Origin: Nemertoderma westbladi
Lineage: Eukaryota; Animalia; Xenacoelomorpha
Length of the DNA: 38,335 bases
Assembly (NCBI GenBank): GCA_032718475.1
Contig: JAUCBJ010005153.1
Location: forward strand, 1-38,335
Direction of reading: 5' to 3'
In this document: positions 1,191 to 30,600 of the stretch, one piece after another
Numbering within the stretch: position 1 is the first letter of the stretch
How the letters are laid out: every line of letters starts with the position of its first letter
Notes under the pieces: model-generated
What the model was told of the DNA's origin: nothing
The model's database searches: none
Seen by the model: only the letters and a program-made list of their open reading frames with translations
Made by a program: the position numbers and the translations under genes

Positions 1191-1382
1191 CACTGCCTTA
1201 TTTAATTAATATCACCTGGCAGCAATACTCGAGCTGAATATTTATTTATTTGTACTTCCCTCTTGTTTCACTCTAGCATACATGAGGCCGTTAGGTCCAC
1301 TGTTAGTGGTAGAATATATGCAACTTAAGAGTGCCTGTTCAATAGAAGTGGATTGGGTGGGATAGTGAATGTCAGGGGCTAG

Positions 1383-1452
1383 TGGCTGAGCTGGTTAGCG
1401 CTACTGATGAGGCCTGTTAGGCCGAAACGTACGTATAGCGCTGGTTCAACCC
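1383..1452 (+). promoter_or_regulatory. Putative internal RNA polymerase III type 2 promoter (A box + B box)
   Basis: TGGCTGAGCTGG resembles the tRNA A box (TRGCNNAGYGG), with D-stem-like GCTG/TAGC pairing. GGTTCAACCC fits GTTCRANNC and lies in a T-arm-like CTGG-loop-CCAG hairpin. Box starts are 60 bp apart. Confidence 0.55.
1396..1443 (+). ncRNA. Type I hammerhead ribozyme (minimal stem III with palindromic loop)
   Basis: Stem I TAGCGCTA(1396-1403)/TAGCGCTG(1436-1443); core CTGATGA 1404-1410; stem II GGCCT-gtt-AGGCC 1411-1423; GAAA 1424-1427; stem III AC-gtac-GT; cleavage triplet GTA 1433-1435. Confidence 0.92.
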
Positions 1453-1461
1453 CCAGTGACA

Positions 1462-1632
1462 CCCATGACTTTCGTGAGACGCATCTTAAAGGACACTGGC
1501 CTTGAAGATGCGGATGATCTAGCCAATGTCATGGGTGATAGGGAGATGTGGCGGTGCAATTTTGTCGATAAGCCGGCACAGCATTCTTAAAAATGCAGCT
1601 GCAATGCAGCATGCCGATCCTAGTAGTAGTAG
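1462..1632 (+). mobile_element. 3'-terminal 171 nt of the RTE-type LINE at 4408-6483
   Basis: Direct alignment at constant offset 4850, 165/171 identical, same (TAG)n tail. Confidence 0.97.
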
Positions 1633-2474
1633 ACGCTCCTTCTCATTTTTTCCACTTCTGAACAAACCATAATATTACATCCATGTAGTAAGGCCGACCA
1701 GCTGATTGGTTTGGTTTTACACAGTCCATCAAACACTTACTTATATGTAACGATATTTAAGAATTTAAACCAATATTTTATTTTATTTTCATGATTCCGT
1801 TTTTTAGACTTGTATACAATAATTTATTCATTGACTTTTAATTGGATAAGAGAGGCGCTTATTATTCAAGACTGGGGCCCATATATAGGAATAGAAACAT
1901 TATTGGCACCAGTATCATATTTTAATACACTCTCTAGTAAGATTAACTATATATTCTTATAATACTTCACATGTTAGTTTACCCGAGTAACATACTATAA
2001 TTACACTGACAGTCATATTTAAAAGAGTATTAAACTGTATCATATGAAAGGCTTATTAATTTATTTTATGGTTAGGTTAGGTTAGCAGTTTGGCACAATA
2101 AATAATTGCCCTTGTATACAGGTGATGTACTACAGTAAGTAGCCTGGTTACTAAATAAACATTCCGAGTAGTAGTCCTAAAATGTGGTTTTAGTTTTTTA
2201 ATTGTAAACTCCACTATAATAAGTCAGAATGTAGCACTTTATATTCTAGAAATTAATTACAACATATAATGTAAGTCGCAACAATTAGCAAAATTTACAA
2301 TAGGATTTAAGTAACTAATCAGTAAATATTTAATCGTTAAATTGTCTACATTATTTATCCAACGTTTTTATTGAAAATCAAGATATTTTATAAGACATCT
2401 AATAGATAAGTCATCTAATAGTTCCCGCTATAACTGTAATTTTTCTATCTACTCCATCAGTAATTGACCTAAAA

Positions 2475-3527
2475 ATGGTACATCAAGGTATCTATAGTGA
2501 CACAGGAATTCCAATAGATGAAATTCTTTCAGGGCCTCTGGAAGGTGTGTATGAGGTCATACCGGATAAAGTAATCCCAACATCTCCTTCAGAAGTTAGT
2601 AGAGATCAGTATAAAGCAGTTACTGTGCCTGGGAGGGGAATGTCATCAGTTAGAAGGTGGTGGGTTGGGGTTATTGTTGGTGTGGTCATTGTGGTGTTAG
2701 TTGTTGCAGCAATAGCAACATTGTTTGTAATAATTTCTACCAACAAAGAAGAAATAAAACTGATTAAAATTCACAATAATGATGTTGTGGAACGAATTGG
2801 AAATTTGTATGAAAGTTTCAGAAAATTGGATGAAAGTGTTGGGGGTCTAACAGAAATAAATATCCGTTTAGAGAAAACGTTGTTGCAACTTCACCCAGTA
2901 TTAGTTTGTTTAAATACTCCAGTAGATGTAACCGCGTTTGTCAGCGATATTAATGGACTAAATGGGCTCATTCGTTGCGACAACACAGTACCAGGTGGGC
3001 CTTGGGTAGTCATACAGAGGCGGGTAGATGGATCAGAAGATTTCTATCTAAATTGGAAACAATATGAAAGTGGTTTTGGAGATGTTGAGAGGGAGTTCTT
3101 TCTAGGTTTAGAAAATATATACAAATTGAGCAAAGATGGAGTTCAACTGCGGGTCGATTTGTGGTACATAGATGAACACAAGTACGCTGAGTACAACAAT
3201 TTTTACATTGGAGATTCCCTGGATAATTACTCGCTACATATATCTGGGTACAGTGGCACTGCTGGTGACTCAATACTTTGGGGGAATCCTGGTGGGATCG
3301 CTTACCTCAATGGTTCCCCTTTTTCTACTCAAGATAATGATAATGACCTTGCTTCTGGAAACTGCGCCACTGCCCATGAAGGGGCATGGTGGTATCGAAG
3401 CTGCGCCTACTCCAACCTAAACGGAATCTATGGGAGAGCGGATCTGCAGGGACTAGTTTGGTGGACATTCACTGATAATGAGAACCACGTACCCTTTGAT
3501 AAGGTAGAGATGAAGATTAGAATTTAG
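2475..3527 (+). CDS. Intronless type II transmembrane fibrinogen-related domain protein (FReD; FIBCD1/ficolin/tachylectin-5-like architecture)
   Basis: 350 aa: ~60-aa N-terminal tail, hydrophobic TM aa 62-87 after RR, heptad-like neck, then fibrinogen C domain motifs WVVIQRRVDGSEDF, WKQYESGFG, EFFLGLENIY, LRVDL, FSTQDNDND, CATAHEGAWWYRSCAYSNLNG, EMKIR. Confidence 0.9.
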   Translation: MVHQGIYSDTGIPIDEILSGPLEGVYEVIPDKVIPTSPSEVSRDQYKAVTVPGRGMSSVRRWWVGVIVGVVIVVLVVAAIATLFVIISTNKEEIKLIKIHNNDVVERIGNLYESFRKLDESVGGLTEINIRLEKTLLQLHPVLVCLNTPVDVTAFVSDINGLNGLIRCDNTVPGGPWVVIQRRVDGSEDFYLNWKQYESGFGDVEREFFLGLENIYKLSKDGVQLRVDLWYIDEHKYAEYNNFYIGDSLDNYSLHISGYSGTAGDSILWGNPGGIAYLNGSPFSTQDNDNDLASGNCATAHEGAWWYRSCAYSNLNGIYGRADLQGLVWWTFTDNENHVPFDKVEMKIRI

Positions 3528-4407: not shown

Positions 4408-6483
4408 GGTCATTGATCAAGAAAACTTGCCACCTCCATGCAGCATAAAGGAGGTGCCACCTGTAGCTGCATAGACCCTCTTACTAGGGCAAATCTGATC
4501 CTGTAATTAGGACCCCCTTCGTTCTGGGATAAGGACGCCCTTGGTCCTGGATTAAGGACCCATATACTTGGCTGCAGGGATGGTGAGCTACCAATGGCTG
4601 GTCAGGAGTAGAGTGTTCTCATGTCCACTCTGAGAGCACTTCACTGCGACCTGCACCTGGCAGCAAGGGTACAGGGCATGACCCAGCAGATGAGCTGCAA
4701 CAGCCAATGGTGGGTCATGTGCGCCAGAGTAGATATGGGGATGGCAAACCAGGGTGTGGTATTTGCCCCGAGAGCTGACACGGCAAAAAAGTACCCCCAA
4801 ACCCCCACTATGGATTACATTAGCAATGCGGAGGTCCGGCCACTAGAGACCAGTGGAATTACCGGACACAATTGGCCGCACAGGCGTCAGTTAACTCCTG
4901 ACCGGCTGCCTGTCTCACCCCCTACTGGAGAGAGAGCAGCCAACAATTCTTTGAGTCCCTTTCCTGATGACCTTTCTGGCCCAAACCCTGGGTCACCAGG
5001 GAGGCCAGATTGTAATGGGGAGAGGGATTCTGGAGTTGGAGGCTACTCTCATGTTCCACCCCGACTTTTTATAAGTTGGTGCCAGTTCCCAAGAAAGGCA
5101 ACCTAACACTCTATGGTTCTTTTCGGGGAATCTCATTGATCTCGATTGCTGCAAAGCTATACAATAGGATTGTATTAAATCGCATCAGGGATCCCATTGA
5201 GAGACTGCTCCGTGGAAATCAGAATGGGTTCCGTAAAGGTCGTGGGACCATGGAGCCCATTTTGGCACTTAGAAGGATAATTGAAGAATTATCAAAAAAG
5301 AAAGACAGGCATCTGGCTGTTATCTTTGTTGACTTCTTCAAGGCCTTTGAATCAGTCTCTCGCTCACGTATGTTCAGCATACTTTCATTAATGGGATTCC
5401 TGATGAAATTATTGCAGCAACAGATCAGTATACGATGGCTCGACAACATTTGTGTCGACTGTTGACGGTGACACAGAACCATTTGAAGTGTTATGGGGCG
5501 TCCTCCAAGGAGACACACTTGCACCATTCTTGTTCATTATTGTGGTTGACTATGTTCTACGCATGTCCTTAGATCATCATAATGATGATGGGGTGATGAT
5601 AACACCAACTACTGGCTCCAGAAGTCGAGGAAATCCTGCCAAGTACCTAACTGATCTAGACTTTGCTGATGACTTAGGAGTACTCTCAGAATCATTAGAG
5701 GGAGCCCAACGGCTCCTCAGCTCATTAGAACATGCTGCTTCTAGTGTTTGTCTTTTTATTAACTCCAGAAAGACCAAAATTTTGACAGTTAACTTTGAAA
5801 GTCCTCAGCAAGTCTCTGATCGGATGAGCATAAGCTCAAAGGATGGTATGCTTGAGCATGTGGACGACTTCTGTTACCTGGGATCATGGATCCGGAAGTC
5901 AGGTAAGGACCTTCGAATACGTAAGGGAAAGGCATGGGCAGCCTTGAATAGGCTTTCCAGGATTTGGAAGTCACCGAGAATTAATCGGAAACTTAAGGTC
6001 CGATTATTTAGAGCAGCAGTAGTTCCAGTACTCCTCTACGGGAGTCCATGCTGGGTTCTAACTGCTGAGGACACCAAATCTCTGGATGGCACATTCACAA
6101 GAATGCTACGCCAGGTTCATTGTGTTAAGTACAATGCACACATCTCCAACCAGACACTATATAACATTGGACGTGTCTCATTGGTTCCCCCAAGCTTGAC
6201 ACTAGAACAAAATCGCCTCCGCTTTGCAGGACATTGCTTTCGCCGTGAGGACCAGCCAGTGCATAATCTTGTACTTTGGCAGCCTCATGGAGGAATAAGC
6301 ATGGTGGACAGCCCATGACTTTCTTGAGACGCATCTTAAAGGACACTGGTCTTGAAGATGCGGATGATCTAGCAAATGTCATGGGTGATAGGGAGTTGTG
6401 GCGGTGCAATTTTGTTGACAAGCCGGCACAGCATTCTTAAAAATGCAGCTGCAATGCAGCATGCCGATCCTAGTAGTAGTAGT
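4408..6483 (+). mobile_element. RTE-type non-LTR retrotransposon; frameshifted, apparently lacking the AP-endonuclease domain
   Basis: RT motifs VPKKG, QNGFRKGRGT, FVDFFKAF, GVLQGDTLAP, DLDFADD, YLGSW, RLRFAGHC across 5076-5465/5452-6318; (TAG)n tail 6471-6482. The GC-richer, structured 4.4-5.06 kb segment is inferred to be its 5' region and runs directly into RT. Confidence 0.85.
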
Positions 6484-7379
6484 ACTATTTTTGTGTTTCC
6501 AATAGATACTTGAAGCATTCAGCTATCCACTCATAACTAAATTTTTACTCTCGACCCACGTCTGGTATTTCTGGATCTCGTTGACATCTTCAGCAGCTAC
6601 CATAAGTCTGTCCCCACCTTCGTGTTCTGCCCCCCCCCCCCCCCCCCCCCCGTCCCCTCTGGGTCTGCAGTTGCGCGTCCCCTCACCCCCACTGGGTCAG
6701 CGGTGCCCCACTGTGTGCCCCCTCAGGTCCCTCTGGAAAATGTGTTTGATTTGGGGGCAAATTTATTTATTTTGGCGAAAATGTATTCTTTTGTTTTGCG
6801 AAAATTTGTAATTATTTCGGGGGTTTTGTCATTTATTTTGGGCTAATAATTGGTTTTGGGGAGCATTTATTTATTTTGGTATTGAAAAATTGTTTTTGGT
6901 GTTGAACAATTTGTTTTGGTGTTTGAATACTTTTATTTGGGGTGACTTTATTTTATTTGGTGTTGAATAATTTTTTTTGGGGTCATATTATTTAATTTGG
7001 TGTAAAATAATTTTTTTTGGTGAAATTTTCATCAATTTTGGGATTACTTTAATTGGTAACTCATTTTGGTACTCATTTTGGTGCATCTCTCACAGTTCGT
7101 CTCTCTCATTCACCCTAAATACTTTAATTATCTCACAAAATTATTTACAGTTTTATGGTAATATTGGTACTATGGTTTTATGGTATTATGGTCCTCCACC
7201 ATTGACTACATACGCTCGTAGAACCAGAATAGGATGGTTCTGTACCGGTACATCTATGAAAACTCTAAACGAAAGAAGAAAGCAGAAAGAAGAAAAGAGA
7301 CACAATCTGAACTAACCACATTCATTCGGAAGTTATTAGGTAGTCATTACATCCGTTCACAAAAACCCATCAGGATCAT

Positions 7380-11405: not shown

Positions 11406-11464
11406 AATATATAATATATTTTATTTAAAATAAAAATATTATTACGAAACTATGTCGATACGCT

Positions 11465-14400
11465 TATAATACCATATCCATCCAGTAGTGTCCATAGTAG
11501 TACCGTAACCAGTAGTGTCCATATTATAGTACCACATCCAGTAGTGTCCATAGTAGTACCGTAACCAGTAGTGTCCATGTTATAGTACCAAATTTAGTAG
11601 TGTCCATAGTAGTACCGTATCCATTAGTGTCCATATTAATTATAGTACCATGTCCAGTAGTGTCCATAGCAGTACCGTAACCAGTAGTGTCCATAGTAGT
11701 ACCGTAACCAGTAGTGTCCATAGTAGTACCATATCCAGTAGTGTCCGTAGTAGTACCGTAACCACTAGTGTCCATATTTTAGTACCAAATCTAGTAGTGT
11801 CCATAGTAGTACCGTAACCAGTAGTGTCCATATCATAGTACAATATCCAGTAGTTTCCATAGTAGTACTGTAACCAGTAGTGTCCATAGTATAGTATTAA
11901 ATCTAGTAGTGTCCATAGTAGTACCGTAACCAGTAGTGTCCATAGTAGTACCGTAACCAGTAGTGTCCATATTATAGTACCAAATCTCGTAGTGTCCATA
12001 GTAGTACCGTATCCAGTAGTGTCCATATTAATTATAGTACCATGTCCAGTAGTGTCCATAGTAGTACCGTAACCAGTAGTGTCCATATTATAGTACCAAA
12101 TCTCGTAGTGTCCATAGTAGTACCGTATCCAGTAGTGTCCATATTATAGTACCAAATCTCATAATGTCCATAGTAGTATCGTAACCACTAGTGTCCATAT
12201 TATAGTCGGATTGGTCGCACGATGGAGGTTTGTTGCGCGAGTTGTCCCTGGAGCAATGGAGTTCTTCGTTAAACTCGAGGAATCCGTCGTTCAGTTCCTA
12301 CAGGGATTTACAAACCGCCCCAGTATATCGTCCTCGGAACGCGAACTGTTCTCGCTACCGGTGCGCCATGGAGGATTGGCCATCCCAACACCTACAGACC
12401 TAGAACGTGAACACAATAATTCTAGGTGGATTTGTGAACCGTACACCAACCTCGAAACACCGGAAGCCATAAAGAAGTCGCAGCGACAGATCGCAACCAG
12501 AATAAAGGCCAGCGCCGTGGAACAACTCAAAATTAAAGTAGAAACAGCCAGCAGCCATTTACCTGTACATCAACAGAAGTTGAGGGAGTTGGTTGCTGAA
12601 CCCGGGGCCTCGGCCTGGCTAAACGCGCGTCCAATAACCCTCCTCGACACCTATCTCAGTAAGGAGGAGTTTCGTGATGCCTTGTGTCTACGTTATGGGT
12701 GGCAACCCGATTCGCTTCCCGCCCGTTGTGCCTGTGGGACAAGATTTTCAACCAACCATGTCTTGTCCTGTCCCACCGGCGGTTATCCGTCGATTCGGCA
12801 CAACGAACTGCGGGATTTCGTCGCCTCCACCCTAACGGAAGTTGCCCACAACGTCACCATCGAGCCGCACCTGCAGCCAATTACCGGCGAGCAGTTTAAC
12901 CGCGCGTCCACCTCCATTGACCAACAAGCCCGGCTGGATGTCTCAGTTTCCGGTTTCTGGGGGAGTCGATTCCAGAAGACGTTTATTGACGTCTCAGTTT
13001 TCAATCCCCTCGCCCCAACGAACGCAGCTATGGAACTCAACGCCGCCCATCAGTTCCACGAGAACCGGAAACGGAACAAATATCAGGAACGGATCAGGGA
13101 GGTCGAACTCGCGACGTTTACACCCCTCATATTTTCATCGTTGGGGGGTATCTCGCCCACTACAACGCTGTTTGTGAAGCATCTCGCTTCCAAGTTGGCG
13201 GAACGTCGCGAGACGCCATATAGCGAATGTGTGAACTGGGTGCGACGGCAACTCAGTTTCGCCTTGCTGAGGGCCTCGCTCATGTGCGTCCGCGGCTCTA
13301 GGTCTGCCCGTAAACGCCCAGCAGGCACATATCAGGACATCGCCCAAGCCTCCATCCGGTTGGCAAATGCTGATACAAGAATAAACTAATTTTGAAATTC
13401 CCGCTAAGCCAAGCAACATTGTACAGTAGCCTGGTGGTGGGTGAGGTTTTTCTTATTTTTTATAACTTTTATGTGTCTTTTTATATATTTTTCAAGTTTG
13501 TCAATAAAAATAAAAAAAGCACTAAGCAGCCAAAAAAAAAAAAAAAAAAAAATAGTACCAAATCCATCTAGTAGTGTCCATAGTAGTACCGTAACCTGAG
13601 TGTCAGTATTATAGTACAAAATCTCATAGTGTCCATAGTAGTACCGTAACCACTAGTGTCCATATTATAGTACCAAATCTAGTAGTGTCCATAGTAGTAC
13701 CGTAACCAGTAGTGTCCATATTATAGTACCAAATCTAGTAGTGTTCATAGTAGTACCATAACCAGTAGTGTCCATATTATAGAAACAAATCCATCTAGTA
13801 GTGTCCATAGTTGTACCGTAACCAGTAGTGTCCATAGTAGTACCGTAACCACTAGTGTCCATATTATAGTACCAATTCTAGTAGTGTCCATAGTAGTACC
13901 GTAACCACTAGTGTCCATATTATAGTACCAAATCTAGTAGTGTCCATAGTAGTACCGTAACCAGTAGTGTCAGTATTATAGTACCAAATCTCGTAGTGTC
14001 CATAGTAGTACCGTATCCAGTAGTGTCAGTATTATAATACCTAATCTCGTAGTGTCCATAGTAGTACCATAACCAGTAGTGTCAGTATTATAGTACCAAA
14101 TCTCGTAGTGTCCATAGTAGTACCGTAACCACTAGTGTCCATATTATAGTACCAAATCTAGTAGTGTCCATAGTAGTACCGTAACCAGTAGTGTCCATAT
14201 TATAGTACCAAATCTAGTAGTGTCCATAGTAGTACCGTAACCAGTAGTGTCCATATTATAGTACAAATCCATCTAGTAGTGTCCATAGTAGTACCGTAAT
14301 CAGTAGTGTCAGTATTATAGTACCAAATCTCGTAGTGTCCATAGTAGTACCAAATCTAGTAGTGTCCATAGTAGTACCGTAACCAGTAGTGTCCATAGTA

Positions 14401-14695
14401 GTACCGTAATCAGTAGTGTCCATATCATAGTACCATATCCAGTAGTGTCCATAGTAGTACTGTAACCCATATTATAGTACCAAATCTAGTAGTGTCCATA
14501 GTAGTACCGTAACCAGTAGTGTCCATATTATAGTACCATATCCATCTAGCAGTGTCCATAATATAGTACCAAATCTAGTAGTGTCCATAGTATTACCGTA
14601 ACCACTAGTGTCCATATTATAGTACCAAATCTAGTAGAGTCCATAGTAGTACCGTAACCAGTAGTGTCCATATTATAGTACCAAATCTAGTAGTG
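11465..14695. repeat. Satellite of 27/28-bp units (often 55-bp dimers), interrupted by a retrotransposon at 12207-13552
   Basis: Units ccagtagtgtccatagtagtaccgtaa and tagtagtgtccatattatagtaccaaatc repeat for ~1.9 kb in total. Confidence 0.98.
12207..13552 (+). mobile_element. 5'-truncated CRE-type non-LTR retrotransposon (zinc knuckle + restriction-like endonuclease), poly(A) tail
   Basis: Open frame 12211-13389: LPVRHGGLAIP, ASAWL, FRDALCLRYG, CACG..HVLSC, RHNELRD, ARLDV..FIDVSV..KRNKY, FTPLIFSSLGG. A-run 13532-13552; TSD atagt at 12202-12206 and 13552-13556. Confidence 0.88.
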
Positions 14696-17176
14696 GGGGA
14701 ATTCGAACAATAAAACAACATTGTAGTTTTATACGCCCGTTTGATATTTAATTAAAACTAATAATAACTCGTTCGACGTTACTCCAATCAAGAAACGCGG
14801 TCCGTGGCTTGTCGACACCCCTATGGGAATGGATCTGAACGGGGAAGTGGAGGGGCTGGGCACAAGGTTGGCGGCGGTCTCCATAGGTATCCCGGACACG
14901 GGGGATTCAAACGTGGCGAGAAGGTTATTCCGGAATGCGAGTGTTGAACCCCAACCCCCGGGGTACGTAGGAAGTACGAGTATACCCATCGAACAGCCCA
15001 CCCGGGATGGGGAGGACGTCCTAACCGGATTCGGGTCTGCTACACCAAAGAGAACTGGCACCCCAACTAGATACGTTAAGAGAGTCAAGTTTATGGAGCC
15101 GATGGGACGACGAATACCGGGACATGAGAAAGAAAACTCGAGGATCGAGGTCGCTCCGTTGATCTACAAACCAATGACGGTACCCGCCAGATGGAGGTAC
15201 GTTGCTCCAGTGAGTGAGGACCCCGCCACTGAGGCGGTGATAGGCGAGTTACACAGGTCCATCGAACGCGAGGTTCGGAGTTTAAGGACCACGAAGAGAG
15301 CTACGAGGAACCTCTCAGAGGAGCAGAGTAAAATCTTACGGGAAATAAAGAAGAAGAAAGCAATCGCGATTGTACGAGGTGATAAAATCGGAAATGTAAT
15401 AATCGTAGATGAGCGAATTAAACATAAGGAAATCGGTAGGATACTGGCCGAAAAAGAAACATATCAGGAACTCCCATGGGACCCCACCAGCAAGTACATA
15501 GCAGATTTAAAGAAAACTATTCGGGATATGGATCTGGCAGATGGACCGTTGAACTTACGTTGACTTTCTAGTCATGAAACGGCCAACGATGGGGAATGTA
15601 TACCCGTTGTTTAAAGACCACAAGGACATCGACCAGTGGATTGTTTGGGAGAAAGAGGACAATGACGAGGATGGGTTCGACACCGTCGCACCTAAAGCAA
15701 GGCTGATCGCATCCACAGCGGGGACATCGGTTGAGCGCCCAGCGAAACTGTTGAACTCGTGGATACAACCGCTGCTCGGTAGGATGCCCCACTGTGCCAG
15801 GGATTCATATTCCATAAAGGAATCCATCCCGAGTGACACTTACCCAGAGTTGACGGTCATGTCCCTCGATGTTATCGACATGTACCCGTCGATCACGTTT
15901 GACATAGCCGTGGAAGCCGTTACGGCGGCAGTTAAAGAGAACCCCGACTTAGTAGAACGAACAGGGATTGACGTACAACAGATTATTTTACTATTAAAGT
16001 ATGTAATCACTCACACATATTTTGAGTTTAATAAGGTTGTTTACGTATTGATAAAGGGGCTCGGGATGGGTGTCCCAGCGGGTAAGGCGATTGCCGTACT
16101 AGCAGTCCATCGTATACACACACACACGTCAGTTTAATATCACTGTATGGTGCAATATTTTTTCAAACATTCGTGGACGACGGTCTGTCCATTTTTGATC
16201 ATACTGTGCCGGACTTAGTAGAATATAGTATTAGGGAGGATTACAACACTGCCTGTGCGTCTGTTTATGGGGTAAATAGTGTTAAATTCATGTTTGAATT
16301 TTCCAGTACCGGTACAGTATTTTTGGATATGGAACTGTATAGGAACAGTGAAGGGAAGATCGGCACAAAAGTGCACTTTAAACCGTTGTCAAGGAAACTA
16401 CCGATCCCGTTTCATAGCAACCACGATACACAGTTGTTGAAATCGGTGGCCAGAGGCCAACTGTTGAGATTCTGGCGGCTTACAGGGGGTGGATTTAATT
16501 ATGAGTGTGCGCGAGATAGGTACCTTACCGACCTATGGGTTTCCGGATATCCGGTAGAGTTCCTTGAACGTATACAGGGTGCATGTTGGGAAAGTAAATC
16601 GAGGGTACTGGTAAGCTGGAAGGATGATGATGTGACATGATGTTATTTAGCGATAGACGGGAGGTTTAACCCTATTAGTACCGGGCTATAAAATGTTGTA
16701 CAAATACCTGTAAAATCTACAAATATTTACGAAAACGTCTGATTTTTTGTTTGTACGTAGGTATCACTTGTCTGGATCCGACCGAAAAAAAATTTTCGAA
16801 AAAATGTACAGGGGTGGTTATAGTGCAGCACCAAAATTACAAGTAGTGCACAATTTTCACCAAATTTGAAAGTTACATTTTCGGCTAATTATTTTTCAAT
16901 ACAGGTTTTCTGGGGTGCAAAATACATTGGAAAATATTAAAAAATTATATGATTACTATAAATGGCTGTTTAGTCCTCTCTGCGTAGGAAAAAAATGAAA
17001 AAAACAAGTAACCAGCACTTTTCAGTTAGAACACAAAATTTTTAATTCACTTATACGATGCTATAAATTAACATTTTCAGGTTTTTGAAGGCGCTGATTC
17101 TAATGGAATACATTTCTAATATGCCAGATCATTGCTACTTGTTTTTCGGCGTAATTTGGCAAATTTTGGTGCTAGC

Positions 17177-18836
17177 TATGCTAACTGTAAATGAGGTATC
17201 TGGTCGGAAAAGTTCTGCAAAGGGGCGCCTCAAAGCCGATAGTCCTGAAGAACGTGTTGGGAAGTGGAAAAATCTCGAGGTCAGCCCTACAAGGAAAATA
17301 TATGACAAGACACTACCTATAGAAACAGGGGACTTCACACCTGCCGAACTCCAAAGAAGCATTAAAAGCATGTCCAATAATAAAGCGAGTGGATTAGATG
17401 AAATCCCAGCGGAGGTATGGAAAACCGGAGTGCTAAATAGACCATTATTGAATGTTTGCAACCGGATGTTAAAAGGGGAAAAGCCACCACCAATTTGGAC
17501 TAAAGGTCAACTAAAGCCTCTCCCCAAGAAAGGAGACCTCGGCATACCAACAAACTATCGTGGGATCTGTCTGCTTGTGGTAGCTGCCAAAATATACAAT
17601 AAAATGATTCTATATAGGATTAGGCCTCACATAGAGAAACTACTGCGTAAGAGCCAAAACGGATTTCGACCAAGTAGATCAACAATAGCTCAGATACTTG
17701 CACTACGGAGACTGATTGAAGGAATTAAGTCAAAGAATCTCCCCGCAGTCATGACTTTTGTGGACTTCAAGAAGGCATTCGACTCCATCCATAGAGGTAA
17801 AATGCTTGAAATCCTAAGAGCTTATGGAATACCAGAAGTAATTGTTGCTGGCATTGGATTGTTATATTGTGACACAGAAGCGCAGGTACTCTCACCAGAC
17901 GGTGAAACTGAGTTTTTCTCAATCCTGGCTGGCGTACTGCAAGGTGACACATTATCACCATTACTATTTGTAATTGTGCTGGATTACGCAATGAGGACGG
18001 CCACAAAGGGTGAAGATCTGGGATTCACACTTCAAGAACGCAGAAGTAGTAGATATCCGGCAACTACAGTCACAGACACCGACTTTGCGGATGACATCGC
18101 CCTGCTCTCTAATACGCTAGCAGATGCACAGCTTCTACTAAATAAAGTGGAGAGGGCTGCTAAGGAGGTTGGATTGCATATAAATGCTACCAAGACCGAA
18201 TTCATGACCTTTAATGTTGATGGAAACTTGACAACCATTGATAATAATCAACTAAGGAAGGTCGATGACTTCCAGTACCTTGGATCATGGATAGAGAGTA
18301 GCAAAAAGGTCATAGAAGTTAGGAAAGCAAAGGCTTGGGTAGCTCTATCAAAAATGGATACCATCTGGAAATCAGATCTCTCCAGGCACCTGAAGACTAA
18401 GTTCTTTTGAGCCACAGTGGAAAGTGTATTTTTATACGGGGGTGAGACCTGGACGCTGACTAAATCACTTGAACAACGAATTGATGGTTGCTACACAAGA
18501 CTACTAAGGGCAGCCCTAAACATCAGCAGGAGACAACACATGACAAACGCCGAGCTTTATGGTACAATACCACCTGTATCAACCACCCTCCGTGAAGGCA
18601 GATTAAGATTCAGTGGGCACTGCTGGCGAAGTAAAGACGAGGTCATACCAGATCTACTTCTCTGGCAACCAACTCATGGAAAGCGTAGTCGTGGACGACC
18701 TGCCATAACATATATAGATCAACTTGAAAGGGATACTGAACTTGGGAGAAACGAAATTGCGACAACTATGGAGAATCGGGAAGCCTGGAAGGATCTCATT
18801 TCCACTGTCCGAGTTCGCTCGACCTAGTAGTAGTAG
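17177..18836 (+). mobile_element. 5'-truncated RTE-type LINE (second family) with (TAG)4 tail and 11-bp TSD
   Basis: KASGLDEIPAE, LPKKGD, NYRGI, QNGFR, FVDFKKAFDS, GVLQGDTLSP, DFADD, YLGSW, RLRFSGHC; one in-frame TGA at 18408-18410; TSD ttggtgctagc at 17166-17176 and 18837-18847. Confidence 0.95.
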
Positions 18837-19620
18837 TTGGTGCTAGCACCAAATTTCATACCCATCACCAAAAAGTACAAGTTTGCGATGTCCAGTGCTG
18901 TTTTTATTGATTCCATCGGATTCAGGACCCTCATAAACCCGTATAACGCAAGAAACAAGGTGATACTATCTACTTATCAATTTGCATATTTTCCAAAATT
19001 TGGTGCTCGCACAACAATTTTCACCCACCGGCGGCAAATACAACTTTGAGAACTCTTATTAAATTTTTACTGATTCCATTGAATTCAGAACCATCACAAA
19101 CCCGTATAACGCAAGAAACAAGGTGACACAATCAATTGATATATTTGATGGATTTCAAAATTTGGTGCTAGCACCACATTTTGCACCCACATCCGAAAAA
19201 TACAAGTTTGAGATGTCTAGTTCGATAATTATATTTTCAATTGAATTCAGAACAGCCATAAACCTCTAAAACGCAAGAAATAAATTGTCACAAGCAATTT
19301 TATCTATTGAATGGATTTTCAAAATTTCGTGCTAGCACCAAAATTTGCACACAGCACCGAAAAATACAAGTTTGATACGATTGGTGCAACTCGTATATAT
19401 TTCATCGAATCTAGAAACCCAACAAACCCCAATTGCGTAAAAAACAAGTTTCAAACGATCAATTTACAAAATTGACTTATTTCAAAATTTGGTGCCGGCA
19501 CCAAAATTTGGCACCCACCGAAAAAAACAAGTTTGAAATTTCTAAATCAATTTATATGAATTCCATCAAATTTCTAACACCAAAAAACCAATGTAAATCA
19601 AAAATAGAGATGTTGCAATT
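18837..19620. repeat. ~163-bp internal tandem repeats (x5) of the TTAA element, each with a tggtgctagcacca-type palindrome
   Basis: Palindrome starts at ~18838, 19001, 19163, 19327, 19490; shared tacaagttt and aacgcaagaaa motifs. Confidence 0.88.
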
Positions 19621-19878
19621 CATATTTAATGAAATGTAATTTTCAAAAAACGTCTCAAAAAAAAGTGCCAAAAGTAGGGTTAAAAAATGGTGCTATAACT
19701 CGAAAAGTACCCAATATTTTTGAAAACAGTTTTCACTACTAGGAAGACAATAGATTTTTAGGAAAAGTCGTAAAATTTCAGATTCCCAACTGCGTTTGTT
19801 TCAGAATTATAATAAAAAAACCACGGGGGGGGGGGGGGGTCATATAAGTTTAATAGGGTTAAGTCCTGCACTAAGAAG

Positions 19879-20415
19879 GTGCTTAGCAGGAACAAGGCAG
19901 AGTTAGGCAGGAACCAACTCCAAGTAGCGGTAACCAGTAAAGGAGGGTTGAACATAGGTCACTCGCTGGTGGTAAAGCGTGAGCGCCTTGAAGAGAGGGG
20001 AAACCGATCCTGTAACCGTAAATGTCTCACGTGTCCGCACATGTACGACCTACAGGTTCTACCATGGGGGGAACGGGTCAGGGGCTCGTTTAACTGTAGG
20101 TCAGCCAACATACTGTACATAATCACCTGTAAGGACCACCCACGGGGCTTTTACATAGGACAGACAGAACAGGAACTGCGGGAGAGAATGAACAAGCACA
20201 GATCGATTATCAACGCGTATAGGAAACACCCCCCAATTGACTACACTGAGTTGTCCGAGTATTTACTGTGTGAGCACTTTCGCTGGTGCCCGTGGGGCAG
20301 CTTTCAGATCTCAACGTTCAGCCAGTTCAGATCAAACAAGACTAGGATCCACGCGGAAGCCAACTGCATTTTCCAGTTTAGACCCCCGTGGAACAAGGGC
20401 AGACCGGCTGTCTGA
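19879..20415 (+). pseudogene. GIY-YIG endonuclease domain of PLE 1 with Cys-rich linker
   Basis: CNRKCLTCPH, FNCRSANILYIITC..FYIGQT..LRERMNKH, EHF, E..I..F.P.WN. Confidence 0.9.
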
Positions 20416-21703: not shown

Positions 21704-24700
21704 CTATAAAATATAAAAAATCACAGTTTCTAAAATATAAAAATACTCTAAACAGTTAGTCTTTCTTACGCGGACAGCGTTTACGCAGTTTTTTGAGGCT
21801 AGCAAGAGTCCTTTTCTCTTTGGGGCGAGCCACTTTACTAGGAGGGCTATAACTCCTGGGTGAAGGGTGCAATACATTGCATCAGAAGGTTTAGGATTAC
21901 GATCGGTGTATCCGCCGGTCGAGGTACCTGGTTGATCGATATCAACTTCAGTGGAGCGAGGTCTAATGGCCTTTAGGGCACGTCTTAGGACAGCAGCTCC
22001 TACTGGTCCCTGACGAGTCGTCTGGACAATAGCGGTAGGTGGACCGTGAGTGGTGAGAAACTTCCTCGGTTTAATGGTTCTTTCCAGCTCGCGTTCTCGG
22101 GCTCGATATTCATAGGGCCGTCGAGATACTTCCTGTAACTCAGGGTGCGAGTTGATAAATAAATCGCCATACTCAGGGTCTTGACGGATGAAATTGATCA
22201 AATGGTATGAATTAATATCGTTAGGATTGACGTTCCTGAGATATTTTCGAACAAATTTGGTGGAAATACACTCACCAACACGCTTCATTAGTTCGTAACT
22301 CGGTGTGCGTGTTTTTTGTTCAACAGACGCGAATAGATAAGGATGGAACGCGTAAACTCCCTTGTAGGCGCGTCGAGGGTAATAGCGATGGTGTGACTCA
22401 TAATGTAAATCCGCATTCGCTTGCCAAGCTCGGATGTAGCGCAGGGTAATCATCTCATCTACGTTTTCCAGATCGCGGTTAAAAGGACAATCATAACTGG
22501 CATGTCCTTTAAGTTGACAGTGGTGGCATTGAGTCATAAATTGGGGGCAGACTGCAAAAATGTGCGAGTTATTGAGTCTGCAATACGCACAATAGATCTC
22601 CATCATTGGTTGTTCATGGAAATAGGAGCAGGGTACGTCTGAGTCCATAGGGGTGAAATGATCTCTCGATGCGCATAATCGGCAAAGTTTTCGAGAAACA
22701 TAGTTGGCGTGCCGATAATCGTATGCGGTGAGACATTGTGGACCTTGATACCATTCCAAGACGTAGTCGTTATCGCTGCTCCGGGGCGCTGTAGGCTGAA
22801 TCTTCTCAGATTCTAAGCATATTGGTTCGTCTTCCAATTGCATAGCTGAGGTAGGTGCGGCTGTCTCCGCAAGCGAACCCACTGTTTGAACTTCCACGAC
22901 AGAATAACCCGTGGGTATTCGAGGTCTTTGTATAACAGATGAATGTAAGTTCTGTATACAAACATCCTTGAAAAGGGCGAATCCCGCGCTGTCTAACTTC
23001 TCCGCAGCTGAATCTCTTAGGCTGAGTTTGGTCAGAGCGCGCTCCTTGAACTGACTATCAACGTTACGGAACGGAGTCAGAAAGCGCCTGAAACATTCGA
23101 AGCGAATGAATTTATTGTGTTCATCTAGCTTGGCGAGTTTGGTTCCAAGTATTAAGGGATGGGCGCGTATGGTACGACTGCACACATCGGCTAGCCAACC
23201 GGCAAGTGCGGCGTTTTCAAAGATCGTGTATATAGCTAAGGAGGGACGAAGTGGAACACTCATAAAGCTATACACGGCGCCAGGTGCAGTCAATGGTCCA
23301 TCAAAGTATAATCGAGAATAATGATCTCCATATACTTGTTGGTAGTTGATAGGATTTCCAACCTTGAAATTCCATCCGTATTCTTGAAAGGCAAGATGTC
23401 CGATGGAGGTTCGTTGTACTTTAGTAACGCCGCTGGGTGTATTTGCGTACATAGTGCGGAAGAAACCTCGGCCTTCTGCCCAGGGAGCAATCAGCTGGGT
23501 ATCGACGAAGGGGTATGGAATGTTCTCCATGTTCCGAAAGTCGTTTTTGAGATCTCCATAAACAGCTGAGCCGATTTTAAGGATTCTTTCGTTAAACAAC
23601 ATCTCGAGCACGGGCTGGGGTAACATCGATCCATCGATACCCATGGCCGGTTTGCGCTCGGTGTCGGTGACGTAACGCTGCGCGAGTTCGAATTGTCCAT
23701 GTCGGAGTTTCTTTTGTATCTCGGTAAGGGTCTCAAAAGAATAATCAATCACATTGGAACACGCTCGAGTAAATACGTGGGTAGAACCAGCTAGTCCTCG
23801 TATATGTATCATGCGCGTAGTTCCCAGTTCTCCAACCGGAACGCTACCTTCGTTATCGTAAGTGACAACTCCATACATCTCGATAACGTTAAGAGTCTCA
23901 TTCCACTCTTTAGTGGCGTTTTCTAGAGTCATTCCCACTGGATGCCACAAGGTAGCGCATTCGCTAGCATTAGGTAGATCTCTATACTTTAAATATTGTG
24001 TAGTATATGTTTCTACATCTCCATATCGTTGTATTCTTTCCTCCTCGAATAACACGTCGAGATTCCAGTGTACTAATCGAGTTTTGATGAATCCATCAAG
24101 ATTATACGGAGGTATTGTCTCTTTCTCTATTCTGGAAACATTATAGGGTTTTCGAAATGAGTTTACTTTGACTAACTGATCCAGATGTTTCTGCAGTTGT
24201 TCGAGTTCGACAAGATCGAGAGGATTTATTAGTGGTAGAAACCTCAGACTATGTGTAGGATCTTCCGGTTTTACCATGTAATATTGCATTAGATTGACAT
24301 AATAAGGGTGATCTTTGATCCCATAAAACGAGTTCGGTAAAGGTCTAGCGCGTATGTTAACCTCGTGTACCATACGACGGACAAGATCCGCTCTATTGTC
24401 CAGAGGTTCAACTAGTATACCATTGACACGAGCGGCCTCGATTGGCGGACGTTGCAACATGGGAGCGTCAGCGATAAGATCTCGAGATCTTAGGTTGATA
24501 TCAACCGGTTGAGGCTGTGCCGTGGCGAAGAGTTTGTCTCCGAAATGGGGAACCATCGAAGGATGGATGATGGTTTTAGAATAGAGATCCGTCATAAGGA
24601 TTTGAGCTTCTGGCTGGGCTAAAGCGGCTTCTTCTCTCTCATCCATTTCTATGTGTTTCTCCTCGAGCTGATTTTCCTCCGCTTGTTGTTGTAAACGCTC

Positions 24701-26008
24701 GTCTAGGAACTCTTGTAGAGAGTAGGTTCGTCCACGTTTGATGTCTTCTTCGAGATTCTGGATTTCTCTATCGAACTGGGGTAAAACTAATTCTTTCACC
24801 GCTTGGACTTGTTGCTGCAATTTGCGTTTCTCTAAACAATCATAAGTTCCTTTTCCGATCTTCTGCCGAATAGCGTCTAACGCGTTTCGTACAACGCTCT
24901 CTTCGACTTCGGTAACGGGTTGTATCGGGGTTAAGCCGGGACGGTTGTACGGGTTAAACGGCGATATTAGATGACCGTGTCCTAATCCGGCTAGGTAGGG
25001 TTGGCGAATATCTAGAGAGCCCACTACCGGAGTGCCACCGATTAATTGTTCGGGTAACACAAGATCTTTAAATAGTGAGTACAGTTCAGGGGGATCCGTT
25101 ATACTATTAGGATCAAGCGTTTGAGGTCTCACTGAGGAATGAGGAGGTCTGACCGAGTATTCCGGAACTCTGATCATCGGTTTATTTAAGGATCGTTTGA
25201 GTCGAGCGAGCGTAGGTGATACATCAAACAGGTTTCGCTCGAAACTCCCATAAGTATATCGTGTAAAACTGTGTTTAGCGCAACGTCTCCGCGGATGTTA
25301 ATGTCTTTCCGTTTGCTGATTGGGTCTAGGGCATTCGTCGCAGTAATACCAAAGACGCACGTCCTGCAGGGGAAACGCGGGTGATCGTTCTCCAGTTTTA
25401 CAATATTCCTCCATCTGTTCGAAGCTATCTGGGACGACAGGTAGCGGTCGATCGGCGGTAAGATACATCATAGTGAAATAGAGTCGTTTGAGTTCTATCA
25501 TAGGGTCATGATGTATACCTTGAGGATATCGAGTTTCTAGATTTTGTTGACTGGCAATATTGAGATATGTTTCTCTCAGGAATTCCAGATAATCGTTGAA
25601 GTCGCTGCGTTTATCCGGCTCTTCAACGTCTTCCCTTTCGAGTCTGTTTCGAATAGAATTCTCGTGTTCTATTCTCGGTTTATCATTCCGACTCCGCTGC
25701 GTATGATATTTAAATAAAACCATTTCGCTTTCGGTGTCTACATCGTCCGTATCGTGTAAATCGATAGGATGGCCAGTAGTTAAGAAGTCCATATACGTAC
25801 CATTACGATGCGTATAGCGAGCGGTGAATTTTCGATAGTCCAATTCACGAGTGAGTTGCTCCTGGGACATTGACGGTTCGATATAACGACCATCGTCCTC
25901 CGTAGTAGTTGGACCAGCGTCGCCGCGTATCAAGCTATCAACAAACGCTTGTAAAGGTAGAGTATATCGCTCCCTGATACCAAGATCATCTTCTATCAAC
26001 TCAGTCAT
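21704..26008 (-). pseudogene. Long orphan ORF (~1434 codons) with zinc-knuckle cluster, interrupted by a single in-frame TAA (listed 236-aa and 1157-aa ORFs are one frame)
   Basis: 25297-25178 is 40 sense codons in frame with both ORFs. Contains a coiled-coil-like Q/E-rich stretch and CRLC..H..C, CAYCRLNNSHIFAVC, CHHCQLKGHASYDC. No RT/IN/TM motifs recognised. Confidence 0.75.
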
Positions 26009-26828
26009 ATCTGCTATATGAGTTTATCAATATTATAATGAGTTTATATTTAGGCTAGCGGGCGTCGCTGCCTACCCCTCTCTGCCCCCGGACAGTGCAA
26101 GATCCTCAGCGCCGATGTACCGTCATCGCTGTGTTTTCGCCAACGTAGTAGCTATACAACGACAACGATAACCGGTACAAGTCACTCCACTGTCCGTCCC
26201 AAAGGCTTAGATTTAATTCAGGTTCTTGCTGCAGAGTTAGGGCTACTTTCACAATTGCGACTCGCTACTGTAAACACACTTTAGTAGTAACATTCACCTA
26301 TAAACGCACAAATTCCACACAACTGTCACAAATTGTACACATTCGGGCCATTTGTCCGTTAGTCAAGTGCCTTCCAGAATGCCACGTTATTATTATGTAT
26401 CCTTGGATACTAGCAGTATGCTATTTATTCCCTATGCTATTCAATGGGGCAAGCTTTCTATTGTTCTTTTAACTCACTTCTAATTCTAGCGTGGTTGTTG
26501 CTATGGTGACATTATGGAAAGCTAGCGGTAGAATTAGGGTAATTCTCATGCATACAGATCTGGGATGCTATTTAATAGTAATTCTTTAATTGTCAATATC
26601 CCCTTTATACATGATTTTATGAATTTTATCGGCTATTGACTATAATATTGGAGATTCTCGCACACTAATACACTTAATAGGGTGAATCTCCGCTCCCATG
26701 ATCTATTAATTATTGGAATTTTGGGAATGTTATAAATTGTATAAAAATGACAATTTATCAAATTCATTAAAATATGAATTTAAATTTATTCCCGTAAATT
26801 TTATTATTTAATATTAAATAGACACAAT

Positions 26829-27608: not shown

Positions 27609-30600
27609 TTATGTTGGGGAGTCCCTAGATGTTTGTTGGATCAGGTAGGTGGTCGTGGGAAGAGTATCTTGCCTTCCATAGTTTCCGGAGAGTTCTCGGT
27701 CTCTTTCCAGTAAACATAAACGGCCAACTGGGCGATTGAGCTGCTGTGTCTCGAAGACAATTCCCGGTTTCTTAAAGTTACGTCGCATGATGACGAGTTC
27801 TACCGATCGCACCAAACCATCATCCGAGATGTGAGTCTCCATGATACGACCTGTCTGCCACCGCTTACGTGGAAGATCTGAATCCACAATAAGGACCATG
27901 TCTCCAGCGCTGACGTTTTCTTGCTGCGCAAACCACTTAGTTCGAAGTTGTAGCGTGGGCAGATAATGTTTTTCCAAATGGTCAGCGAAACGACGGGATA
28001 ACAACTGCATAAGTTGCCAAGTTTGTCGGCAGTATTCGTCTCCGTCTGTGATTTCCGATCGTGGGAGCATGGCTACAAGTTTCTTCAGTAGGAAGTGCGC
28101 GGGTGTTAGCGCTTCCAGGGAATCGGGACTCGATGAGACTGGCATAAGCGGTCTCTCGTTGAGATAGGCGGCGATTTCCTCCATTAACGTCCGCAAAAGT
28201 TCGTCGGTGAGATACGCGCGGCACGGCACTATAAAGTGAAATGCGGTCTTCACGCTCCTGATTAATCTCTCCCAACTTCCTCCCCACCAAGGGGCGTTGG
28301 CGGCGTTGAAGGTCCAGCTAGACGCTGTTACCCTTAGCTGATCGTCCACCTGTCTTTGGTTCCAATCTTTGACGTAAACCTTGATTTCATTGTTGGCACC
28401 AATGAAGTTCGTTCCCTTATCAGATCTCATCGTGTTACTAGTTCCAAAGCGAGCGATCTGTCGTCGTAAGCTCAATAGGAAGCTGTTGGTAGATAAATCG
28501 TTCACCATATCAAGATGGATAGCTCTACAAGTCATACAAACAAAGATGACACACCATCTCTTGACTATAGTCCTAGCACGATATACTTCAATAGGGCCAA
28601 ATAAATCTACACCGGTATTAGTAAAGGGTGGTTCATAGAAGCTTACTCGTTCCCTAGGTAATTCTGCCTCTCGCTGTGTTAAAGGCCTACTGAATGCTTT
28701 CCTACAGGGTATGCAGTTCCCAAGAACTTGGTTCAGAGCTCTATGGGGTTTATAAAAATAATAGCGAGTTCGAATTTCGCTAAGAACTCGTTCTCTACCA
28801 GCATGATAAAGTTTGCTGTGAACATCTACAATCATCTTGATTTGTATTTCAAGATTTCTAATGAGTATGGGAAACTTAGTGTCAAAGGATAATGGAGCGT
28901 TAGTTAGTCTTCCTCCAACACGTATTAACCCATCTATCATTGTGCTAGAGAAACGATCCCTTAAGCGCATCTGTGGATTTCTCAACAACAGGAAATACTT
29001 ATCGGAATCCTCATAGCATTGCAGGAGTCTCAGCATCTGCTTATTGGTTTCTTCATGCTCCTGATAACTGATCTTCTCCTTCAGAAACCTGTCGGATATC
29101 TTATATTTGGGAAGATCTTTAACAACATGGACCTGCACAGATGTCAGTGGAGCGGTATCGCTATTGGTCTTCGTCCTGGAGTAGTGATGATGAAAACATC
29201 GCTTTAAATATGTAACGGCCTTACAGAGCCGATTCCAGGAACTGTAGTGATATATCGCTCTCTGCAGGAGAGGTGAGAGTCCTTGCGAGACGTCTGGTAT
29301 TCCAGATTTCCAATCCTTCTCTCTGATTTCCACAACAGACTTATTTGTGGCTGTGTGTTTCGGATCCAAAGCGTCGTCTCCGGAAGTGTGTAGTACAGAC
29401 AGATCTACCACGGGTTTAAATAACTTCGATTTACTCGCCCGAGTTTTAGGTTTGACTTTCTCCGCTCCCTTGGCCTGTCTAATCTCCGCTGTAGTAAGAT
29501 GAGGAGGCCATTCATCCTCTTCTTTGCTTAGAAAGTCGGGTCCACCTAACCAGTCTGGAGTATCTATCAGTTCTTGTGGAGTTGCTCCCCTGGAGGCGAT
29601 GTCTGCTGGATTTATCGTTCCGGGGCAATGTCTCCATTGATCCATCTTCGTGCGACTAAGTATAATGGCTACTCTGTTGGTAACAAAGACGCTGAACTGA
29701 CAGACTTCATTGGTTATATACTCCAACACGAGTAAAGCATCGGTCCAATAGACAGTTTTCTCCAGTGGATATTCGATCTGTTCTGTTACATTCCGGCCGA
29801 TGGCTGTAGCGTATAGAGCCGCTTTTAACTCCGCTCGAGGAACTTTCAACTTGTTGTTTATCAATGCCTTAGAGGTTACCAAGGCGACTTTGATTCCATC
29901 CGGAGTTTCAACTCTCAGGTAGGCTACTATACCTATTCCCATATCGCTGGCGTCTCCAAACACATGGAGTTGATAGGAATACGTAGGGAGAACATGACCA
30001 AAATATGAACGGGAAATTATAAAGTTCTCGATGGCTGGTAGAGAATCTTCCCATTTCATCCACTTCTTTAATAGTTCTCCCTTAAGTGGATCGTCCCATG
30101 AGTGGTTTTCAAGCCACATTTGTTGTACTAAACTCCGAGCAATCAATATAACTGGGCTAATAAATCCCAATGGATCGAAATAAGTGCTCAGGATACTTAA
30201 ACAAATCCGTTTAGTCCGAACTGTATTATCTCGCTGTTTTAACTGGAAAAACAGGATATCTCTCTCTGTGTCCCATTTCAAACCAAGTGTCTTGGTTTCT
30301 GGAAGATCGTCTTTGATTAGGTCTAGATCTTTCGCTCCTCGATCTTCTACCGGGATCGATTCCAGAAACTCACGGGAGTTGCTGGCGAATTTAGTTAATC
30401 GAAATCCACTTCTTTTTAAGCACTCTACCGTTCCTTTGGCGACATCAATGGCTTCTTCAACTGATGGAAGGGACTTTAAATTGTCGTCCATGTATATATC
30501 CCGTTTGATGTTGTCGATCACCTCTTTAGAGAAGGCGTCCCGGTTGTCATCAGCAGTGGTGCGCACTACTGAACAGGCGTTTGAAGGGCTTGAGATGATC

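Follow-up and report, generated by a model that had tools for sequence, protein, structure and literature searches.

The window analysed here, a stretch of 38,335 nucleotides of Nemertoderma westbladi DNA (contig JAUCBJ010005153.1, positions 1 to 38,335), carries one copy of a high-copy repeat of about 341 bases which we take, with fair confidence, to be a non-LTR retrozyme with its hammerhead ribozyme inside a tRNA-derived promoter, interrupted at this locus by the chance insertion of a LINE fragment. The repeat is likely to be a promoter-carrying variant of the known retrozymes and not a new SINE. The original prediction, made from the letters of the window, had read 1371-1632 as a Pol III-transcribed SINE in which a hammerhead between tRNA-like A and B boxes was fused to the tail of a neighbouring RTE LINE, or else as a template-switch chimera. 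Other copies of the repeat were taken from contigs of public sequencing runs compared with the window. X1 and X2 represent one sample, X3 and X4 come from other studies under the same organism label and X5 carries another label. Contigs matched to 1100-1900 numbered 17,541 (X2), 11,580 (X1) and 6,858 (X3). The features are, along the window:

1076-1206, + strand: AT-rich high-copy repeat of 21-base subunits, separate from the unit, which it overlaps by 9 bases (1198-1206); X5 record 25 leaves at 1206
1198-1461, + strand: 5' part of the repeat unit, 44% GC, seen by high summed depth in three DNA runs and in a self-closing X5 contig
1370-1461, + strand: tRNA-derived head, predicted to form a single long hairpin whose ends (1370-1378/1452-1461) pair like an acceptor stem
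1383-1394, + strand: A box, D-arm-derived, a strict pattern match and predicted 5' strand of the distal stem I
1398-1441, + strand: hammerhead, canonical metazoan type I, from motif scan, fold and Rfam, with layout as in the available text of PMC4209133; cleavage predicted after 1435
1398-1403/1436-1441: hammerhead stem I, 6 bp
1404-1410: hammerhead core, CUGAUGA half
1411-1415/1419-1423: hammerhead stem II, five pairs, or four pairs and a five-base loop; the stem-loop spans 1411-1423
1424-1427: hammerhead core, GAAA half
1427-1428/1433-1434: hammerhead helix III, two base pairs closing a palindromic GUAC loop of four bases
1433-1435: GUA cleavage triplet
1443-1453, + strand: B box, T-arm-derived, a strict pattern match and predicted 3' strand of the distal stem I
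1462-1632, + strand: 5'-truncated LINE end within the repeat, with the last 42 codons and stop, a short 3' UTR and (TAG)4
1633-1679, + strand: remainder of the repeat unit past the insertion, from joints and loose ends; right end approximate
1646-1651, + strand: T6 run, predicted Pol III terminator, from a T-run scan
5046-6484, + strand: LINE of the donor family, a frameshifted copy of APE-RT type; left end approximate

A structural scan of both strands of the window found a hammerhead motif at 1398-1441 only, and such a motif was present in one of 300 shuffled windows (two-base block shuffles). By its layout the motif is a canonical metazoan type I hammerhead, and self-cleavage is predicted for it. 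This type has a helix I of 6 bp, a helix II of 4 bp, a helix III of 1-2 bp and a palindromic loop, and its weak helix III hinders cleavage of the monomer, which is restored when two tandem copies pair (PMC4209133, in the part available). Here, the dimer co-fold of 1393-1447 via the palindrome reaches a predicted -46.6 kcal/mol, compared with 2 x -17.8 kcal/mol. The known tertiary contact (PMC11875169, available text) agrees with the U at position 1.7 (1442) and with the A that closes loop II; the same U1.7 faces A1397 and could pair with it. The predicted catalytic fold with the A/B-box extension has -28.0 kcal/mol versus -32.4 kcal/mol for the best fold, and the folding energy of the head is no better than that of shuffles (z -0.56). 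Covariance and tRNA models had been named as a check in the original prediction. Rfam had no match at gathering score and a weak one below it, to Hammerhead_3 (type III; 22.3 bits, E 0.032, gathering 48.5), and ARAGORN called no tRNA. Rfam matches to IRE_II and snoRNA models (E 0.04-0.23) were taken as chance. Inside the same repeat unit, 1278-1300 is a degenerate echo of the stem II region (like 1402-1425), which may be an old internal duplication.

In this tRNA-derived Pol III cassette the hammerhead occupies the place of the anticodon arm and the variable arm. This part of the original prediction held, the core being complete and the boxes strict matches; both boxes are present, within narrower limits than it had given. 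Their identification follows strict consensus patterns. They are the sole pair of A and B boxes spaced 20-70 bases apart in the window, and any pair of that spacing occurred in one of 300 shuffles. The tRNA ancestry of the two boxes is firm. In the best predicted fold the A box pairs with the B box, extending stem I distally past a short bulge. Once the LINE piece is removed, the order reads A box, hammerhead, B box, about 20 bases and T6. This T6 is the only run of at least four T in the unit; the loose-end consensus retains it in X1 and X3 and has five T in X4. The commonest A-box variant, G1390A, accounts for 43%, 46% and 90% of depth in X1, X3 and X4, leaves the box intact and changes a G-U pair to A-U, and the B box has no variant at 5% of depth or more.

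The repeat encloses the LINE piece and spans 1198 to roughly 1679, and thus begins some 170 bases upstream of 1371 and continues past 1632, as joints and loose ends show; the element limits first proposed, 1371-1632, do not stand. Contigs on the 300 bases 1182-1481 number 1007 (X1), 798 (X3) and 61 (X4). Summed depth, which is not copy number, rises from 20-48 on the unique flank past 1694 to about 100,000-340,000 over the hammerhead and 1.3-3.2 million over the LINE piece; the head exceeds the flank by three to four orders. No contig of X1, X3, X4 or X5 lies over 1472-1481 or extends past 1481, and none lies over 1182-1191; contigs show presence, not absence. The unit length comes from X5 record 26 (371 bases, depth 5.5), which consists of 1432-1460, 1644-1668, 46 other bases and 1198-1460, and which closes on itself with a period of 341 and no LINE piece, fitting a tandem array or a circle. 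Because the RNA status of X5 is a guess, this contig is used for unit length only. In X1 and X3 the loose ends in front of 1198-1200 have a common consensus, and its first five bases match 1675-1679, a weak sign of head-to-tail order in these runs. The window itself holds a solo copy, and head-to-tail order is suggested by one low-depth X5 contig and this 5-base overlap. Long contigs carry partial copies with varied starts, one of them with two inverted pieces, and strand inversions make up 5 of the 15 joints among those listed (24 found) for 1182-1481. No ATG-initiated ORF of at least 30 codons is confined to the unit's own sequence, each of the three listed extending into the LINE piece, and nothing convincing as a target-site duplication was seen round the whole unit 1198-1679.

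Variation among copies bears on whether the head is maintained. Five variant sites fall within the ribozyme among the rows listed (40 of 49), at 1408, 1413, 1417, 1419 and 1423, and each of these affects core position 7, which is free, or loop II, or is a stem change that keeps a wobble pair. From 1424 to 1460 the complete table of variants at 5% or more is empty. When the window is compared with the X5 contig, all 13 listed differences are in 1198-1369 and none in the head (P 0.004, or P 0.022 if a 14th, unlisted difference is counted in the head). Across the family, the head shows no deficit of sites at the 5% level or above (5 of 91 vs 14 of 172 upstream, P 0.62). Selection on the head is therefore no more than suggested.

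As had been seen at the outset, the 171 nucleotides that follow the head match the LINE 3' end at 6312-6482, (TAG)n included, with 165 of 171 positions identical. Upstream of 1462, 6 of 24 positions match the LINE in register, and a 4-base microhomology with the target at 1458-1461 is reached with one gap. Translated, the LINE piece aligns with the C-terminal end of its best LINE homologue (12 of 30 positions identical, E 9e-9); since the 42 codons and stop align there, three quarters of 1462-1632 is ORF. Other copies skip this piece. Joints that leave the head at 1449-1460 and land at 1632-1644 make up 11 of the 15 among those listed (77 found), and the best LINE-skipping joints have depths of 2415 (X1) and 2073 (X3) against 47.5 and 22.5 on the unique flank; the joints' shorter sides are 21-35 bases long, a length that further copies of a repeat would be expected to give. 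Loose ends behind 1460 (35, 43 and 5 contigs in X1, X3 and X4) resemble 1634 onwards and are unlike the LINE, among 18 of 353 rows listed. Ahead of 1462 the loose ends (162, 117 and 86 contigs) lead on into LINE sequence, and past 1632 they run into unrelated AT-rich flanks. The summed depth of the LINE family is about 10 times that of the head, and LINE 3' ends meet unrelated flanks. No exact repeat of at least 5 bases flanks 1371-1632 (1320-1380 compared with 1622-1680). We regard 1462-1632 as likely to be a 5'-truncated LINE end inserted by chance, once, in this copy. The piece is ordinary, and at most shows the kind of accident able to found a SINE.

The family of the LINE at 5046-6484 is RTE-like by architecture: a single long ORF is followed by a 42-base 3' UTR with (TAG)4, and the architectural features of RTE elements are present. 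Its best homologues are mostly proteins of 950-1060 residues with RVT_1, many with PF14529/PF03372, and no named RTE element was found among them. A second LINE of the same general type lies at 17187-18815, its protein being 44-46% identical to the homologues of the first, and downstream of it, at 18837-19566, is a 162-base satellite.

By design, the unit is kin to the Schistosoma repeats with which the original prediction had compared it. Sm-alpha and Sj-alpha are likewise short multi-copy repeats that combine a type I hammerhead with a Pol III promoter of tRNA type, and cleavage of their multimers leaves monomers without a usable upstream promoter (PMC6765202, PMC2770079, parts available). 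Sm-alpha differs in that promoter and hammerhead follow one another, as drawn in the available part of the review (PMC6765202), whereas here the hammerhead lies inside the tRNA body; tRNAscan also reads whole tRNA-Gln genes in Sm-alpha-like copies (PMC2770079, available text), whereas ARAGORN finds none here. In the present unit the predicted cleavage would divide the promoter in two: the cut after 1435 is predicted to part the A box from the rest, as originally proposed.

Metazoan non-LTR retrozymes fit in size and ribozyme type, and by these two features the unit is probably one of them. They too are non-coding, of 150-450 bases, below 50% GC and of high copy number (PMC7229834; PMC7761336; 10.64898/2026.07.22.740005, each available in part), and the size of the unit with its 44% GC (1198-1461) fits this description (PMC7229834). 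A canonical type I hammerhead, a short palindromic helix III and common solo monomers are shared features in the same accounts. Such retrozymes share their genome with Penelope-like elements, and the window holds reverse transcriptase fragments that we read, from their motifs, as candidate Penelope-like ones. Two differences stand out. Retrozymes seem promoterless and may rely on read-through, in the available part of a 2020 review (PMC7761336), whereas the unit here has strict A and B boxes and a predicted T6 terminator round the ribozyme, a Pol III promoter folded into the ribozyme that bears on how animal retrozymes are transcribed. Self-cleavage and circles have been demonstrated for retrozymes (PMC7229834, in part), whereas for the present unit they are predicted.

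Penelope pseudo-LTRs also carry type I hammerheads with a palindromic helix III, in tandem and inverted partial copies (PMC4209133; 10.1101/2021.04.23.441226, parts available), but here the ribozyme is canonical and not minimal, a tRNA cassette is present and no RT/GIY-YIG ORF adjoins. The non-autonomous LTR elements Helenus and Cassandra/Ajax resemble the unit in having a small-RNA-derived Pol III promoter within a repeat that is not a SINE; as described in the available text (PMC10886601) they have no hammerhead, and in the window copy no LTR pair or primer-binding site was seen. The literature covered yielded no account of a hammerhead that lies between an A box and a B box, and retrozyme sequences with this nested layout may exist in supplements without comment.

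Sequence collections were also scanned for the layout, and the viral, metagenome and prokaryote collections used hold little animal DNA. The hammerhead core with the window's helix III pattern matched 1 viral locus and 33 metagenome loci; six of these 34 have stems II/I of at least 3 and at least 4 pairs, and none has an A or B box. A pattern of hammerhead plus B box matched 9 viral loci, one of them with stems and a B-box-like word and no A box, and a D-arm word plus hammerhead matched 14 prokaryote loci, none with stems. Metagenome contigs L028 (675-1036), L034 and L042 carry a related canonical hammerhead and no A or B box, with two hammerheads each in inverted orientation on L028 and L042. 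On the minus strand of phage contig L175, near 150-204, a well-formed type I hammerhead is followed by a B-box-like word, with no A box.

From this layout we infer how the repeat may be transcribed, cleaved, ligated and mobilised. Pol III would initiate near 1376, and most transcripts would end at T6 as a tRNA-like RNA of about 100 bases with a single hammerhead. Such a lone short transcript should cut poorly because helix III has only two base pairs. T6 lies some 20 bases past the B box and would be expected to terminate the majority of Pol III transcripts, and the cycle therefore needs read-through of tandem copies, by Pol III past T6 or by Pol II from outside, which would place two hammerheads on one RNA. 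These would pair via the palindromic helix III and cut after 1435, and the released unit would begin with the B box and finish with the A box. RtcB would then ligate it into a circle in which promoter and ribozyme are both restored, and from this circle, or from an uncut multimer, a Penelope-type reverse transcriptase might make the tandem, truncated and inverted copies of the genome. In the available parts of the sources, RtcB circularises retrozyme monomers in vitro and Penelope-like elements have been put forward as mobilisers (PMC7229834; bioRxiv 10.64898/2026.07.22.740005), strand inversions among copies are a Penelope trait (10.1101/2021.04.23.441226), and 8 of 9 Xenopus retrozyme dimers were without cleavage in vitro (bioRxiv 10.64898/2026.07.22.740005).

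The original prediction had pointed to a puzzle, namely that cleavage would limit the element's own copying; poor cleavage of the lone transcript together with cleavage of multimers would answer it. Because the window copy spans the cleavage site, a cut linear monomer is not its source; it arose from a circle, from an uncut multimer or by copying at the DNA level. Should cleavage split the promoter and ligation rejoin it, the life cycle would have to pass through circularisation, which would then be more than a by-product. Promoter, terminator and cleavage site are separately mutable within the 341-base unit, which makes this candidate source of circular RNA directly testable.

tRNA-derived SINEs join a head with a type 2 internal promoter to a tail from a LINE 3' end, and the present repeat shares the type 2 promoter and, at the window locus only, a LINE 3' end downstream. 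A family with a Pol III head and an RTE tail, mobilised by the LINE and perhaps a young minor subfamily, would account for the anatomy of the locus, where A and B boxes, a LINE 3' end with (TAG)n and then T6 follow one another. We nevertheless hold this to be very unlikely, and the SINE reading is largely refuted: other copies pass from 1460 into 1634-1680, the promoter is internal to a longer unit that reaches 170 bases upstream of the predicted start, the tail is unshared and begins within an ORF, a target-site duplication is absent, and T4 at 1560-1563 could halt Pol III before the LINE 3' end. Many copies with a common head-tail junction and flanking duplications had been named as what would support a SINE family; the head is found in many copies without the tail and no such duplication was seen, and because the head occurs so widely without it the SINE reading fails the test it had set for itself. 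U6-L1 chimeras are known template-switch products that follow the same principle as the other origin first proposed, a jump of the LINE reverse transcriptase from LINE RNA to a small Pol III RNA. The order of parts, with a small-RNA head before a LINE tail, and the 4-base microhomology at 1458-1461 agree with such a jump. It would be expected to start at the RNA's 5' end and to be framed by a duplication, whereas the repeat reaches upstream as far as 1198 and, past the LINE, picks up again at the exact position where it was broken, and we give this origin hardly any credence.

Two further readings place the repeat elsewhere. It might be a satellite or DNA-amplified small Pol III gene whose sole product is an RNA of about 100 bases, running from A box through hammerhead and B box to T6, with the LINE piece still a chance insertion; the RNA may cut itself in trans-dimers into pieces like tRNA halves, and spread would occur at the DNA level with no RNA circles. 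The cassette has the full layout of a Pol III gene, and the retention of T6 across runs, as the unit's only run of at least four T, speaks for this. Against it, long unique contigs hold partial copies whose starts vary, and 5 of 15 listed joints are inverted, with both of which retro-integration fits better than unequal crossing-over; the ribozyme type, too, is that of retrozymes. We consider a small gene of this kind improbable. Slightly harder to accept is that the unit is the pseudo-LTR of an autonomous Penelope-like element, or a derivative of one, co-transcribed with it, the tRNA cassette being a captured promoter. Fragments of reverse transcriptase that we read as Penelope-like are present in the window, and one contig of 2247 bases (depth 104) ends in 1332-1460. 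Moreover, 24 of 57 Xenopus retrozyme families are homologous to known elements, 21 of 22 being Penelope-like, in the available part of a preprint (bioRxiv 10.64898/2026.07.22.740005). Yet no coding sequence adjoins the window copy, the unit does not match the flanks of the window's Penelope-like ORFs, and the X5 contig closes at 341 bases. The hammerhead is also canonical, whereas those of metazoan Penelope elements are mostly minimal (PMC4209133, in part). The retrozyme with an internal promoter is the reading that we prefer.

Within that preferred reading, the source of the ribozyme is a further question. It is conceivable, though we think it doubtful, that the ribozyme was built in place from a tRNA gene, which would make the repeat a self-promoting retrozyme that cuts its own promoter and has it restored by the tRNA-splicing ligase. 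Hammerhead stem-loop II and the core's GAAA half would then derive from the anticodon arm of tRNA-Asn(GUU), stem I from a duplicated D-arm palindrome, and the distal stem from the A and B boxes; only circle-derived copies would stay alive. An alignment of the anticodon arm to tRNA-Asn matches 14 of about 16 bases, in a biased set, and a pattern that included the loop II bases found tRNA-Asn(GUU) at 17 of 17 viral loci, a count biased by the anticodon lying within the pattern. With the D-arm and B-box words only, 104 of 119 loci among the matches listed were tRNAs (Asn 10, Ile 56, Met 14), and in this set, again among the matches listed, whole-head scores fail to single out Asn. When 79 distinct tRNAs fetched without anticodon information were scored on the middle segment, Asn supplied the two best and 4 of the top 6, and shuffles in this test gave 18 and 34 of 5000; the panel consists of viral tRNAs, not those of the host. 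CGAAA is needed in any hammerhead, which weakens the middle-segment likeness to Asn, and GAU stands in loop II in about half of depth. We treat an Asn parent and an origin in place as a lead suggested by these likenesses. If upheld against host tRNAs, the likeness to tRNA-Asn would bear on how hammerheads arise in genomes; if the reading is true, the origin of a hammerhead could be traced to a tRNA, and Pol III-driven circular RNA would have a new route of formation.

Several other elements are present in the window. Two broken elements encoding reverse transcriptase, at 14745-16640 and 32741-34793, are 22% alike over 130 residues, and 19816-20415 holds a GIY-YIG-like fragment; from their motifs, we take all three to be Penelope-like. 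The reverse transcriptase fragment 33936-34793 resembles clusters with RVT_1 and HTH_animal at 0.96-0.97, and searches of Pfam, NCBIfam, PDB and homologues gave no match to the Penelope-like RT fragments. No hammerhead was found beside the Penelope-like fragments, and no sequence shared between the repeat unit and the Penelope-like ORFs or other parts of the window was found. On the minus strand, 21704-25297 is an open frame of 1197 codons with no Pfam family, with a 241-codon frame upstream of it (25298-26023). The longer frame has a Cys/His zinc-knuckle cluster near residues 880-960 and an Atlas lead of 0.89, below the reliable range, to DNA_pol_A_exo1 and CCHC proteins; it lies downstream of a Bel/Pao pol ORF on the same strand (27609-30683) and may be an extra gene of that element.

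At 11449-14695 a 56-base satellite (about 13 + 20 copies) is split by a 417-codon ORF (12136-13389), whose motifs look like a CRE/R2-type C-terminal zinc finger and a restriction-like endonuclease, with no Pfam match; the element is possibly a satellite-targeting insertion. An uninterrupted frame of 373 codons at 2406-3527 encodes a fibrinogen C-terminal domain, its listed homologues reaching at most about 50% identity, with the best named ones in oyster, sponge, amphioxus, starfish and coral. The window also contains a tandem array of a 68-base unit in 6.5 copies at 415-853, and a MITE-like pair of 216-base inverted repeats with 96% identity at 31479-32181.
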